This document shows positions 53,001-62,000 of a stretch of DNA of 64,000 nucleotides, piece by piece (positions within the stretch are counted from its first letter, which is position 1; every line of letters starts with the position of its first letter). The stretch lies in the NCBI GenBank assembly GCA_944391425.1, contig CALXTO010000005.1:293-64292 (forward strand). Direction: 5' to 3'. Made by a program: the position numbers. The stretch is from an uncultured Alphaproteobacteria bacterium. GTDB taxonomy: Bacteria; Pseudomonadota; Alphaproteobacteria; RF32; CAG-239.

Positions 53001-56000
53001 TATGCGACCATTCCCGGGGAACACCGTTTTTCGGCAATTTGCGGCCGAAACGTCATGTATGATAACGACGATCTTACTGGCGGCATTGCGTTGACAATCC
53101 GCGTTCATGCCGATGACGTTGCGTTTGGATTGGGAGATTATGGACTGACTCAGGGCAGCGGTTTGCACAAAATCAATCCGCTTAAGGATATAAAAGAGCC
53201 TGAAGATCCATACGAACGCCTGCTTTTGAGTATCAAGCGCGGCGACCATATTTTGGTTTCCGGAGCGACTTCAACCGGTAAAACGACGTTCTTAAACAAC
53301 CTGCTGAAAATTCTGGACATCAACAAACGTATCTTAACCATAGAAGATACCCGCGAATTGATTGTTCCGCATCCTAACCGGGTTCATATTGTCCTTTCGC
53401 GTACCGAACAGACCAACGCTCTGACTTATGCCAAAGTTATTGACCTTGTTGTCCGTTTTACGCCGGATGCCATCATCGGCGGCGAAATTTCAACCGGAAA
53501 TGCCGGCGCAATCTGGGAACTGATGGGATCCGGGCATGACAACTGTCTGGCCACGATCCATGCCGAAAGCTCCGAAGCGGCATACCAGGCATTTACGGAC
53601 CGTATTTTGCATACTTACCCGACCATTGACCGTAAAAAAACAATTGAAGAGATGCGCCAGAAACTGCGCGTGGTTCAAATTAACCGCGATGGCAACCTCC
53701 GTGCCGTTACGGAAGTCACTTAGCCGGCGGTATTTTTTCCTGCATGGTCGTATCCAGCTTGTTGTAGATGTTAAGCAAGTTGAGATAATTGATAAATGAG
53801 AAACGCTGATCGCTGTTTTCCATCATTTTCAGGTGCAACAGTCCGATGCCCAACTTGTCGGCAGCTTCCTGAATATCATAACCGCGCCTTTCTCTTTCTA
53901 AAGAGAGTTCTTGTCCCAAAAAATTATAGACAATATCTGTAAACAGGCGCGGATTTTCTTTATAGGCTAATAAAATATTGCAAAACCGAGGATTGTTCAG
54001 TTCCGCAGAATAGTCAACCATTCTTTTTCTCCCGGTTACAAACTTTCAGCCTCGGCAAATAGGCAAAAACAAAAGCCGAACTTGAAACATTTTTCAAAAA
54101 AAATTCTCAAAGTGGCAAAATACTACAACAGTTAAAGATAGAATGCAACCAAAAATTTGTTTGATTTGAAAAATGCACTCAATACATTGCCTATAGTGGC
54201 GGAATATTCAACTGAACAATATTGCCCGGACGAATTTTTGTATTTGAATAGCGCATATTTCCCGTTTCAATGACAAAACGCTGTCTTCCGGTCAACTGCG
54301 AAGCCAAATCATAAAAATCTCTGGCGTTGAGTTCCTGCCGCTGCGGATTCATGATATACAGGACGCAGCCCTGGGTTCTTTCCGCCACGCCGCATCTGGC
54401 ACGGCCCCGGGGAACCTCGGGATTAACGACAACGCCCTGCAGGCCGTTGCGAACAACCTTTTCATCTGTAAAGAAAAGCATTCCCGTGACAATCCCCACA
54501 AAAAATAACACCGCGCCTAAAAGGATTAAAACTTTTTTTGTCAAATACGGCGGCAGCTTGGAAACCTCAAAAGCAGACGGAGCTTCCTGTTCAAAATCTT
54601 CTTCGTTAAGAAACTGCGGATTAGCATTGCCCTGAAAATTTTCAGGCAGGTTTGCCGTTGCCGGAAGGTTATCTTCATCCAGATAGGCGTCCAGGTCAAA
54701 AGCATCAGACACGCCGGAAGTTTCCGGTGTCGACGCAGGTTGTTGCGGCGTATCCTGACGGAAAGGATTGTTTGCTGGCATTGTCTGAGGGCTGGCAGCC
54801 GGAGGGCTGGCAGCCGGACTTTCCTGCCTTGGTGCTGCGTCAGGAACAGATGACTGCGGAATTTGAGGCATCATCCGGTTAATCGGACGTTTAACCTTTT
54901 TTAACTGCGGTCGCTGAACTTGCGGCTGGTTTCCCGGATTAAAGATGTTATCCATAACGAGATATCCTCCTTTAGCGAACGCTTACATGTTCTTCTGCAA
55001 ATGTTTGTTTGTTTTCAGGGTCTTGATGATTCTCGGAACCATGAAAACAACCGTTTCGGATTTAGGTTTGCTGACGCCGAAAATTCCGTTGGGAATTCCG
55101 ATAACCAAAAAATTCTCGCCAAGTTTGCTGCGAATATCAAATTGCGTAATTTCCCCGTTTTTAGATTCCAGAGTTATACTTGAAAATATTTTGTCGTTTT
55201 GTTCAAAAGACGCTTTTGCCAGAATGGAAAGATAAGATTCCATCGACTGGCGGCTGGCGCATTTTCCGATATCAAAACGGGAAAACCACAAGTTGGGTAC
55301 GACAAATTTTCCTTCCGCAACGAGTTTAACTTGGGCTTGTTGTCCCAAAAAAGCACGCAGACTGTCAACGTTAATATCGTTAGAGGTTGTCAAAATCCGC
55401 CCCAAAACGCCGGGCTTTGTGCTTTTGATGGAACCGAATTCAAAGGTATTTAACAACTGCTGCCACTCAATATCCTGATTGTTATACGGATATAATGTAA
55501 ATACTCTGACGTCAAAAGCAATAAGAATTGGATTTTCTTCAAAATAGCCGATCAGGTTTACAATTTGGTTTTTCAATTCATAATCGGCGTCAAAGGTAAT
55601 GGTGTAATCGTCAAAATCCGCCGTAAAATCGGTAATCCCGGCGCCTCGTAAAACATCCAGTATTGCCAGCAAAATTGGCCGGGATTGCGGCACGTAAAGA
55701 CTGAAATTGGCTTTACGGCTGATGCGCAGCGTTTTGTTGTTGGCATCATAAGTATAATAAATTTCAGCAGCCTGGGTAATCACATCAATAACTTCAGTCA
55801 GTTCTCCCCGCAGATTTTCGGCCGAGATACTGGCATAAGGTGCATCTTTGGCAACAAGTTTGATGCCGGCTTCCTTAGTCAGCTTGAGCAGAGCGCGTTC
55901 TGCCGGCATAGTTTCAAAAGAAAAGCCGTTAACCTCAAAACGCGGCAAAAGGTCATTAATCCCGTTCCTTTGCAGATTAAAAGCTTTCAGATTATACGGG

Positions 56001-59000: not shown

Positions 59001-62000
59001 AATTTCCGCCGATATGGCGGCAGTCGGTTGGACAGCTTTTGCCAGCCCGGCCTTTTCCGACAGTTCATCAACATAATCCTGCAAAACGGCTCCGCCTGGC
59101 AGGGAGCTGAAAAGCCCGCGGATTTCTGCCGGAAGCTCCAGCAACATCTTATTGAAAGCTTCTTTCTTTTCAGCACTGAAAATATGCAGCTGCCGGTAAA
59201 TGTTCAAAAAGCGCTGAGCAACGATAACGGGATCTTCCTCCCCGTTTCGCTGAGCTTTTCTTCTGGCTTCCGATGTCCTGTCTTGTTCAAGCATTACCGT
59301 TTTTTTCAAATTACACTTTATCCATAATACCGATTCTAAGCGAATGATGTAAATTTCAGGTTAATAAAACAAAAAAACCACCGGAATACGGTGGTTTTTT
59401 TTAATAAATCTTCTGATTTACAAACTGATGAAAACAACCTTATGGGCATGCATCAGTCCGTCATTGCCCAAATCTATTTTTTCCTCAGGATTCCAGCGGA
59501 TTCCGTATAATTGTCCTTCATCATCTTCGCGAATGGAAATAATCTGGGCTTCCGTGTCCGAAATATAATAAACGGCAATGTCTCCCACGCTGATAACTTC
59601 TTGCGGATCTACGTAAAGAATGGAACGCGTCGGCAACAGCGACCCCAGTCGACGGGTGCACAAATTAACGGCATAAGCTTCTTTTTTGTTGTACAATTGA
59701 GCCGGACGCTGAACTTTTTTAAGCTCTTCCTCAAAATTAATGATGACATTGCCGTCTTTGCCTGCTGTGCCGTAAACGGATATTTTCATGCCGTCGGGAG
59801 AGGCATTGCCGAAAGAGGCAATTGCGCCGCGCGGATTGGAAAGCAGTTTGTATTTCGCGTCATTGCGCTGGATAATTTCTTCCAGCATTCCTTTACTGTC
59901 CAAACTCTTGATTTCGTCCCGAAGCTCTTCCGGCGCCATTTTGAGAGCTTTGGCAATATTTTTGAATTCATTATCCGATACTTCGCGCTGTCCCATTTCA
60001 ATCCGGTGATAAACGGAAAGGGTCATGTCTGAACTTTCGGCAACTTCAATCAAAGTCAGATTTTTTTCATTGCGGATCTGGCGCAACCCGGCACCCAGAG
60101 TTTTCAAACCTGTCTTTTCATTGATTTTGTTGCGGCGTTCCTGCTCGCGGCGCCAAGCCTGAACAATCTCCTGCTGGGAGTTTTGTTCATTGACGAACAA
60201 TTCCTGTAGCGGGCAATCCAAAAATTCCGCCACACGTACCAACTGTTCCTGGTCAACCCGGCGATACCCTTTTTCAATTTTGGAAATCGCAGACAAGCTG
60301 ACTCCCAAATGATCTGCCAGCTCCTGCATTGAGCGGCCGCGCAGACGACGGTACATTCTGATTTGGTTGGGGAAAATAATTTCTTCCATTTTGGATTACC
60401 TCACGAAAAATATAACACCAAATATCACTAAATGCATATTAATCGATCCGAAATATTAATCAAGAAAATAGTACAAAAAAAGACAATTTGTGTACAAATA
60501 TCAAAAATACTCCGGCCGGAACCCTGTTAAATCAGAATTGGTCTTTGGTTCTGAATTCATACATATTGGCGTCTTTAAATTCATGATGTCCGCGAAGATA
60601 CTTTTGAATTTCCAAAGCTTTTTCCTCTCCGACGATTCCTTTTAGTTCGTCCCACGGCATATCTCTGAAACGCCCTTCCTGATAGTAGCGCTGATATTCC
60701 GAAGAAACGCCGTAAGATGTTTTAACGCTGTTTTCGTCGATTTTTCCGTCACGTTTTCCGTCTTCGGTCCGGAAAGAAGCCTTAGTGTTAATGATGCCGT
60801 TGGACGACAGAGTCGTTCCGCGGCCGCGGGCATCAATCGTGGTAAACTCGGTTGTCAACCGGTTGTTGGCGTCAAAGGACAGCTTGGCAATTGTTTTGGA
60901 ACCGTCGGCATTAATTTCTTCATAACCAATGCAGCGTCCGTTTCCGTCATAGATAGCTTTTTGCTGCGTATACATTTTGGCATTGATATTCATATTTGGC
61001 ATTCTCTGCCCGATGAGATCCTTAACGGCGGCGACAGCCATTTTGTCGCGCCCTTCCACACCTTGCGGAATATCAAGCATACTCATAGCCTTGTCTTTAT
61101 AGCGTCCCTGACGGTCAAAGGCCGACGATCCTTTAAGAGAATTGCGCACCGTTGAATCCCTTGTTCCGATAACCTTGCCGTCTTTGTCTAAATAAGTCTT
61201 TGAGGTCGTGCTGAACGTATCGTTTTTAATTTTGCTTTGTGTTACGGTGCCGACTTTGGTACCAAACCCCCAGTGGCGCTTGCCGTCTGCCTGAACTTTT
61301 CCCGGAATCCATGCGCGATTTGTTTTAACGGTATTTTTGGCCAGAGTGGTACTGCCGTCTGCATTTTCGGTCAAAACAAAAGTTTTGCGTCCGTTGCGGG
61401 AAGTGTAGGTATAGGTGTTTCCGACTTTGGTTCCTCTTTGTCTGGCGCGGTTGGTCTGATATTTCATAAGTGCCTGCCGGCCAAGTCCGGCAGTGCCGTG
61501 AACCAGATTTACAACGCCTTTGCTTGCCGCTTCTCCGGCAGTTTCGCGCAGCGGTTTGGTTGATTTCAAAGCCATGCCTTTGGCCATGGAACCGCCCATG
61601 GTGGCAATTTGGCTGCCGATGGAAGTATTGGAAATGCTGCCCGAGAAATTCCCGGCAAAGTCGCGTGCTTCAGCCATTACCGTCCACATCAAAATCAAAA
61701 CAAAACAAACTTCCAAAAACGCTTTTGAAAACCAGGCAAGTTCTTTTAAGATGTCTGCTATGTCACCACCGGTTCCGGCCAACAGATCATCCAGAGAACC
61801 GGTTGATTGCACGAGAATATTTTCAAAAGCCGTTGCCAGCATCAGGACAATCAACGACATAAACAAAAAGGCAAACATGGAGTTAAGAAAAGTTTCCCAA
61901 ACTTTTTTGGTGTATTTTTGCGTGCTTTTGAAAGCGAAAGCACCGATAGCCATCGGCAGCAAAGCGCCCGCCACGGCCAGCTGGATAACCGCATCGACCA

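Follow-up and report, generated by a model that had tools for sequence, protein, structure and literature searches.

We describe a four-gene cassette in a 64,000-nucleotide stretch of DNA (the window: positions 293 to 64,292 of contig CALXTO010000005.1, assembly GCA_944391425.1) from an uncultured alphaproteobacterium of the GTDB lineage CAG-239. The genes lie on the minus strand, in a locus that encodes a VirB-type type IV secretion system (T4SS), and are named here by the lengths of their products in amino acids (aa): p764, p230, p427 and p254. Judged by bridging sequences, profile comparison and predicted fold, p427 genuinely belongs to the secretin superfamily, in which it is very divergent and compact, and its type is that of the lipoproteins BfpB, PilN and TcpC. 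The linkage of the module to VirB6-like genes is strong and ancient. We put at about one in two (roughly 0.5) the probability that the assembly encoded by the module serves the T4SS as an accessory portal in the outer membrane, or as an outer ring, and does not constitute a separate pilus or type II machine. Partnership with the T4SS is suggested because the island is nearly always joined to arrays of VirB6-like genes and, in the window, to a complete giant VirB2–B11 system.

Homology of p427 to secretins

One outer-membrane portal, the secretin, is common to type II and type III secretion, type IV and Tad pili and the export of filamentous phage. A phmmer search with p427 against 1.84 billion representative proteins returned 144 matches. 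About sixty of these constitute its own family (57 at E ≤ 1e-30; 25–48% identity), and a weaker tail consists of proteins of 450–740 aa that align to p427 residues ~95–340 with E values of 1e-10 to 1e-4. All ten of the tail proteins that were scanned contain the Pfam Secretin domain (PF00263), several contain STN, and one has a fused TcpQ domain. Alignments were made for the close family (A1, 41 homologs), the broad family (A2) and the bridging PF00263 secretins (A3). Comparison of A2 with A3 in hhalign gave a probability of 99.95% and an E value of 3.4e-38, and was collinear over aa 75–416, including the terminal motif. The bridging proteins are closest to BfpB, the lipoprotein secretin of the bundle-forming pilus of enteropathogenic Escherichia coli (E 4.5e-33), and MshL and PilN models were matched in part.

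The AlphaFold2 (AF2) model of p427 has a predicted local distance difference test score (pLDDT) of 58 overall and of 65–85 over residues 170–420. When it was compared with the PDB using Foldseek, the top 33 matches were secretins only (E 1e-8 to 5e-3), and BfpB came first (E 9.7e-9). Direct searches at E ≤ 1 found no Pfam or NCBIfam family in p427, PF00263, TIGR02520 and STN included, and sequence searches of the PDB with the single protein, the close-family profile and the broad-family profile found no secretin. The assignment of p427 as a true member of the family rests on PF00263 in its weak matches, on the profile–profile comparison and on the secretins recovered by Foldseek.

An earlier note on this DNA, made from the sequence alone, had called the 427-aa protein secretin-like and distinct from the secretin of the pilus cluster in the window. 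The significant similarity that it expected did emerge, from profiles and fold, and the direct match to Secretin models by which it proposed to check the idea did not appear. As to the second claim, BLASTP found no similarity between the two window proteins and a profile-versus-sequence comparison gave an E value of 0.027, and a recent duplication of the pilus secretin was rejected on these grounds. A phage pIV-type origin is not favored (f1 pIV, E 5e-3; no phage genes in the cassette), and the single match of p427 to pass E 1e-3 in a viral structure library is an unnamed protein. Homologs of p427 come from uncultured gut and rumen Alphaproteobacteria, for example CAG:495 and Ca. Scatocola.

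Domain organization of p427

The N-terminus of p427 reads MEQNKVMIRTKIKYLFVSALFLTAGAC followed by SGD. The lipobox cysteine, Cys27, is invariant across the 41 homologs of A1, and the Ser at +2 fits outer-membrane sorting; by these sequence features p427 is a lipoprotein, as the earlier note had it. The linker of ~70 aa between the lipid anchor and the N0 domain is the most conserved stretch of the protein, with invariant residues clustered at aa 61–123 (A1), and its AF2 pLDDT is <50. Its conservation and its low prediction confidence are both compatible with folding onto a partner or an adjacent subunit, and by position its counterpart is the LG domain of BfpB, which folds in this way.

The hhalign alignment covers the N0 and N3-like regions in proteins that bear Pfam STN, AF2 shows alpha/beta elements there, and N-domain crystal structures of XcpQ/GspD were matched in Foldseek at E ~1e-2. 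The beta-domain that follows is predicted to be beta-rich (AF2 pLDDT 65–85) and closes with the motif IGIPNGIFG...ETVVFMVPRII; the protein then ends ~10 aa past the last barrel strand and has no S domain. Cys76 in the linker and Cys336 in the beta-domain are invariant across the broad family (25–46% identity), and a disulfide between them would tie the linker to the barrel. In overall size p427 is like the minimal secretins pIV (7ofh, 414 aa) and RcpA (8odn, 426 aa), whose solved chains are both among its Foldseek matches. The previous description of a much shorter secretin is thus too strong for the protein as a whole, of which only the beta-domain is compact.

One related locus, from an AT-rich (31% GC) alphaproteobacterial metagenome-assembled genome (MAG), carries a 574-aa secretin-like open reading frame (ORF) with a 150-aa extension before the signal peptide and lipobox (L086, 10001–11725, +; handles beginning with L denote related loci). 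The extension could have arisen by fusion to the preceding gene, or the start may have been called wrongly.

Partner proteins

p254 is bitopic, with one transmembrane (TM) segment at aa 136–164 by hydropathy. Its cytoplasmic N-terminus carries a conserved basic motif, LKKVKRPINR (aa ~17–27; alignments A4 and A7), which a variable, disordered Pro/Gln linker separates from the TM helix. The periplasmic C-terminal domain of ~85 aa (aa ~168–254) is near-invariant, with Cys188 and Cys197 invariant. The AF2 model has pLDDT >90 for the TM helix and <50 for the C-terminal domain, and a fold search with it returned zero matches; Pfam, NCBIfam and PDB profile searches found no family or PDB match. p254 shares its topology with PilP and with GspC and its HR domain: each is bitopic in the inner membrane, has a small periplasmic domain that is conserved, and is encoded beside a secretin. 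It differs from them in having zero sequence or profile similarity and an extra conserved cytoplasmic basic motif, and since no sequence, profile or fold match was obtained, the GspC/PilP-like label can be used only as an analogy of topology. A TcpQ/BfpG-like identity was rejected, as p254 has no profile similarity to the TcpQ protein of the window. In L086 the gene downstream encodes a partner of 185 aa, which has a zinc-ribbon match below threshold (E 5e-3) and is not matched by the p254 profile.

p230 is a cytoplasmic, helical protein, lacking both a TM segment and a signal peptide, with a conserved core of ~140 aa (aa ~18–151) and a Gln/Pro tail that varies. In its alignment (A5), 59 columns are invariant over 26 sequences, and in distant loci the core is the C-terminal domain of larger proteins. 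p764, also cytoplasmic, is rich in Ala, Glu and Asp and has no TM segment, signal peptide or Walker A motif. It consists, in order, of a conserved N-terminal domain of ~90 aa (aa ~18–90), an Ala/Gln-rich coiled region, a poly-Lys patch and an acidic low-complexity tail. Proteins of 270–600 aa encoded at the corresponding place in distant loci share the N-terminal domain (E 1e-5 to 1e-10). The poly-Lys patch is a run of 11 Lys (aa 493–503; 57801–57833), and most close homologs have 5–14 Lys at the same position between acidic regions; a slippage site was considered and rejected, as the patch is conserved as protein and uses mixed AAA/AAG codons. Neither p230 nor p764 matched any family in Pfam, NCBIfam, PHROG or PDB, and the same was true of the shorter versions from distant clades.

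The products correspond to what the earlier note described at the coordinates in Table 1: a 764-aa protein with no signal peptide, a 230-aa protein with a Gln/Pro tail and a 254-aa bitopic protein. It was also right that the cassette has no ATPase, platform protein or pilin of its own, none being found by Pfam, NCBIfam, or inspection for Walker A motifs and TM segments. For the four cassette proteins, searches of Pfam, NCBIfam and PHROGs at E ≤ 1 returned nothing meaningful, and no T4SS family in these collections was matched. There are 932 homologs of p427 and 639 of p254, and such numbers mean that the ORFs of the cassette are real genes.

Genomic context in related loci

About 160 related loci were compared: 84 of the close clade, 9 of distant subfamilies and 67 from a metagenome scan with intermediate members; the scan of the genome collection was run with A1. 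The order p764-p230-p427-p254 is kept in them wherever the contig is long enough, with p230, p427 and p254 together in 68/68, 24/24 and 5/7 loci that have room. T4SS genes, mostly arrays of VirB6-like paralogs, are present in 88 of the 94 loci having at least 8 kb upstream, a linkage that spans 25–87% identity and GC contents of 28–58%.

In the close clade the cassette occurs in two arrangements, either convergent with virB9–11, as in the window, or co-directional after virB11. Several rearrangements lie between the two, and the cassette, which moves and inverts as a unit, is still within the T4SS locus in both. In intermediate and distant clades (25–52% identity, GC 28–58%), one to four VirB6-like paralogs are followed by the dual helix-turn-helix (HTH) regulator and then the cassette, with housekeeping genes downstream and VirB8–11 genes not nearby. 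The virB9–11 genes adjoin the cassette only in the window's own clade. The position between virB11 and virB6 reported for the window is therefore conserved on the side of the VirB6-like arrays and the regulator and not on the side of virB11. Linkage to T4SS genes, whose co-occurrence with the cassette the earlier note proposed to examine, reaches well outside the window's own clade.

The regulator is the best-conserved gene of the island, with phmmer E values of 1e-81 to 4e-86 in clades where p427 is ~30% identical, and is present in 62/66, 8/8 and 20/20 loci having at least 8 kb upstream. Its C-terminal domain of ~120 aa has no family assignment. That a dual-HTH regulator flanks the cassette, as noted earlier, is thus true of most loci. 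The same cannot be said of the small HTH gene placed at the other end: this 101-aa ORF scores below the Pfam threshold, recurs in one of the 84 related loci (L005 only) and contains a terminator-like hairpin (53979–54007). It is probably outside the system, because it recurs in just that one locus.

Some loci show other neighbors. One rabbit-gut MAG has the cassette immediately after comEC, the gene for the DNA-uptake channel, and without T4SS or regulator neighbors (L028, 4287–6269, +); the cassette is flanked by lpxI-lpxB-comEC upstream and tgt downstream. In L087 a 995-aa Cys-rich protein (17007–19994, −) is encoded 6 kb from a distant copy of the module; its N-terminus, ERGRSMVEILGVLAVIGVLSF, resembles that of a type IV prepilin, and its C-terminal part matches the pilins of the window. 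Three pilin-like genes lie upstream of the cassette in L086.

Transcription unit

Within the cassette, the p230 stop and p427 start overlap by 14 nt, and the remaining gaps are 27 and 69 nt. The best sigma-70-like promoter match of the region ends 15 nt upstream of the p764 start codon, and the hairpin between the regulator and p764 would separate the regulator transcript from the cassette. In the co-directional arrangement, a terminator-like hairpin and a promoter-like site (the latter seen in L003) lie between virB11 and the cassette, and a bidirectional terminator lies 3' of p254; co-transcription with virB11 is not supported, on account of the intervening hairpin and promoter-like site. 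With a predicted promoter and terminators in both gene arrangements, the cassette is, as far as sequence signals tell, its own transcription unit, separate from virB11.

Table 1. Features of the cassette and its immediate surroundings, in window coordinates.
Feature	Position	Strand	Remarks
virB11	52755-53723	+	T2SSE match, E 7e-22
101-aa ORF, weak HTH match	53716-54021	-	HTH_25 E 8e-4, below Pfam cutoff
p254	54191-54955	-	254 aa
p427, predicted divergent lipoprotein-type secretin, whole gene	54983-56266	-	427 aa
p427 compact secretin beta-domain (predicted)	55019-55480	-	aa ~263-416
p427 N0 (STN-like) and N3-like domains (predicted)	55481-55966	-	aa ~101-190 and ~191-262, boundaries approximate
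p427 linker, lipid anchor to N0	55967-56185	-	aa ~28-100, boundaries approximate
p427 signal peptide and lipobox	56186-56266	-	aa 1-27, LTAGA before the lipobox C, read from sequence
p230	56253-56945	-	230 aa
p764	57015-59309	-	764 aa
Best sigma-70-like promoter match in region	59324-59353	-	TTTACA-18-TATTAT, 10/12, consensus match only
Intrinsic-terminator-like hairpin between regulator and p764	59371-59401	-	13-bp stem and T-run
Dual-HTH regulator (XRE/HTH_3 x2), directly upstream of cassette	59418-60389	-	Pfam HTH_3 E 1.5e-27, two stretches
VirB6-like genes upstream of regulator	60532-63974	-	862-aa TrbL/VirB6 protein and 285-aa associated membrane protein

Proposed assembly and alternatives

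From its family membership, p427 would be expected to multimerize into an outer-membrane ring, anchored by the lipidated Cys27 via the conserved linker, with the Cys76–Cys336 pair tying the linker to the beta-domain. The periplasmic domain of p254 might dock onto the N0/linker region of this ring, and its cytoplasmic basic motif might recruit p230 and p764. Together the four proteins would form an envelope-spanning assembly that acts with the T4SS as an accessory outer-membrane portal or outer ring. The full picture of a hybrid machine, in which a secretin ring provides the outer ring of a VirB-type T4SS or its portal through the outer membrane and three proteins of new families link the secretin to the cytoplasm, is one that we put forward tentatively and hold to be possible at best.

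A number of points weigh against such a partnership. The docking and recruitment contacts of p254 are pure inference on our part, and membership of the module in the T4SS is something we infer from gene linkage, because the cassette is predicted to be its own transcription unit, six loci lack nearby T4SS genes, with housekeeping flanks in the four examined, and one subclade has adjacent pilin genes. In the divergent loci, the assignment of VirB6 relies on transitive homology (phmmer matches to the window's VirB6) and on TrbL, the sole recurring Pfam match, at a sub-threshold 16–21 bits. The TM-scores of the Foldseek matches are ~0.2 and the p427 model is mediocre; the low scores may be ascribed to the comparison of a modest monomer model with subunits taken from rings. 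The beta-domain is ~58 aa (roughly 30%) shorter than that of the nearest secretin relatives in hhalign, owing to three internal deletions, so that a canonical gated double barrel is perhaps not formed, and the lip and gate elements may be reduced. Finally, the nearest relatives of p427 are pilus secretins.

For this last reason a type IV filament role is a serious rival, although we regard it as unlikely. The module would then be the outer-membrane and alignment part of a second type IVb-like pilus, or of a DNA-uptake or secretion pseudopilus, whose pilins, ATPase and platform are encoded elsewhere, and it would lie near the T4SS because type IVb pili are commonly paired with conjugation-type T4SSs. 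Both the closest relatives of p427 and its best structural match are type IVb pilus lipoprotein secretins, and in combining cytoplasmic proteins and a bitopic protein with a secretin the module is reminiscent of PilM-N-O-P-Q, yet the partners are unlike PilM/N/O/P, GspC/L/M and TcpQ/BfpG. Type IV pilin genes directly follow the cassette on the same strand in L049, L074, L075, L079 and L082, all of the close clade, and their products begin with the prepilin N-terminus GRSMVEMLGVLAIIGVLS, as do the window pilins, with tails that vary. Such adjacency is found in only 5 of ~90 loci with at least 8 kb downstream, however, whereas linkage to VirB6 is near-universal. The pilin-like genes of L086 and L087 and the neighboring comEC of L028 speak for a filament as well, but a pilus cluster that is already complete is present in the window. 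This cluster, R64-like and of type IVb, lies left of the T4SS genes and 31 kb from the cassette; it encodes a PilN-family secretin (18905–20530; PF00263 E 1.2e-17, PilN-family model TIGR02520 279 bits), a TcpQ-domain protein, PilO, two ATPases, a platform protein and two tandem pilins.

The module could also be an autonomous envelope system apart from both T4SS and pili, for example for cargo export or display under the dual-HTH regulator, with the T4SS neighborhood a matter of inherited synteny or shared regulation and no physical cooperation. We give this low odds. The predicted promoter and flanking terminators in both arrangements, the movement and inversion of the cassette as a unit, and a dedicated regulator that is its most conserved neighbor would all suit an autonomous system. 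Six loci (L028, L039, L085, L086, L087 and L130) have no T4SS gene within 8–10 kb, and in the four examined (L028, L085–L087) housekeeping genes surround the cassette. To this extent the housekeeping module found without T4SS or pilus genes, which the earlier note had named as a reason to abandon its claim, does exist locally, against T4SS genes in 88 of 94 loci. The VirB6-array linkage persists, though, across deep divergence, a GC range of 28–58% and several rearrangements, which is hard to explain without selection, and the module by itself has neither an energy source (no ATPase) nor a recognizable cargo.

Very unlikely, in our estimate, is that p427 keeps the secretin fold without a translocation pore and serves as a structural lipoprotein ring or anchor in the manner of DotD or Xanthomonas VirB7. 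The deletions in the beta-domain and the failure of the PF00263 model even at E ≤ 1 would agree with this, but the secretin C-domain keeps all its hallmark motifs in collinear order, the terminal beta-strand motif included, and the predicted C-terminal region is beta-rich and the best-confidence part of the model. The similarly sized pIV and RcpA are solved outer-membrane secretin pores. N0-domain lipoproteins, namely Legionella DotD and Xanthomonas VirB7, are known as outer-membrane parts of T4SSs (PMC3093366; PMC2951367), which lends the non-pore role a known parallel.

Comparison with known systems

The architecture of BfpB is LG domain, N0, N3 and secretin (PMC12531336). BfpB, PilN of R64 and TcpC of Vibrio cholerae share with p427 a lipidated Cys, a linker, N0, N3 and a beta-domain, and all are without N1/N2 and S domains. 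p427 differs in having no direct PF00263, TIGR02520 or solved-secretin match, in its shorter beta-domain and in an invariant Cys pair of its family's own; its gene, moreover, is not located in a pilus cluster, and its partners are unrelated to BfpG/TcpQ. The minimal secretins pIV and RcpA rank below pilus, type II and type III secretion secretins in Foldseek, and the cassette has no phage or Tad genes.

DotD and Xanthomonas VirB7 are, like p427, lipoproteins with a secretin-type N0 that are encoded with T4SS genes, and they are a precedent for secretin-derived modules in T4SS outer-membrane complexes (PMC2951367; PMC3093366). They have N0 only, whereas p427 adds N3, a full compact beta-domain and three partners in its own operon.

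The rvh T4SS of Rickettsiales has arrays of large VirB6 paralogs, duplicated VirB8 and genes split into separate islands (PMC2653234), all of which are also seen in the T4SS described here. No secretin-family component is described for rvh, the word secretin occurring in that paper once, in the title of a reference (PMC2653234), and the VirB10 found here differs in being a giant with beta-flower repeats. A literature search found no description of the p427 family, nor of a full secretin-family protein in a VirB-type T4SS, in line with the earlier note, by which secretins are no part of these systems.

Other genes of the window

The 862-aa protein upstream of the regulator (60532–63120, −) matches Pfam TrbL/VirB6 with 32.2 bits (cutoff 25.9), and in related loci the VirB6-like array runs past the window edge. 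A Peptidase_M23 protein of ~1000 aa is encoded inside this array in L001 (383–3265, +) and L003 (17175–20276, +), at a position that corresponds to beyond the right edge of the window, and may be the cell-wall hydrolase (VirB1 analog) of the T4SS. In L113 a 1030-aa VirB6-like protein (1922–5014, +) ends with a sub-threshold beta-flower match, the repeat type found in VirB10.

The remainder of the VirB-type system is on the plus strand and comprises two VirB2-like genes, VirB4, two VirB8, VirB9 and VirB10. A 222-aa VirB2-like gene (23776–24444) directly precedes the gene for a 1781-aa protein (24467–29812), unusually large for a VirB2-domain protein, whose weak TrbC/VirB2 pilin domain is at aa 421–472. 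The VirB8 paralogs are in tandem (41282–42040 and 42346–43074). VirB10 (48183–52742) is 1519 aa long, with beta-flower repeats (Bflower_2/DUF3659) N-terminal to its TrbI domain. Between virB9 and virB10 lies the gene for a 1138-aa beta-flower repeat protein (44765–48181) that combines VirB10-type repeats with RHS-like matches; both it and the giant VirB10 are kept in related loci.

The two pilin genes of the pilus cluster (11359–11913 and 12071–12625, −) encode near-identical type IV pilins of 184 aa with a common prepilin signature, SGRSMVEMLGVLAIIGVLS. Beside the cluster, the product of a gene at 6584–8041 (−) contains a Ser/Thr protein kinase domain (Pkinase, E 2.4e-10), and this gene is neighbored by ORFs at 8043–8828 and 8782–9471.

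Implications

To our knowledge, VirB-type T4SSs are thought to cross the outer membrane via VirB7/9/10 alone, and we know only of isolated N0 domains (DotD, Xanthomonas VirB7) that hint at a link between secretins and T4SSs. The p427 family represents a deep branch of secretins, with partners and a genomic setting that are both new, and it exposes a gap in secretin annotation, for it escapes every Pfam and NCBIfam model. Bacteria of the human gut, the rumen and other gut environments have the module tied to VirB6 arrays in more than 100 species-level genomes (107 with a relative). If it is an autonomous system, it would be a minimal secretin system that does without an ATPase, a pilin and a platform, and one would have to ask what powers its transport. 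Should it instead cooperate with the T4SS, p427 would be the first complete secretin in such a system, and the module a testable case of part exchange between secretion machines, offering a new way to build the outer-membrane complex of a T4SS and changing how such complexes can be thought to be built.

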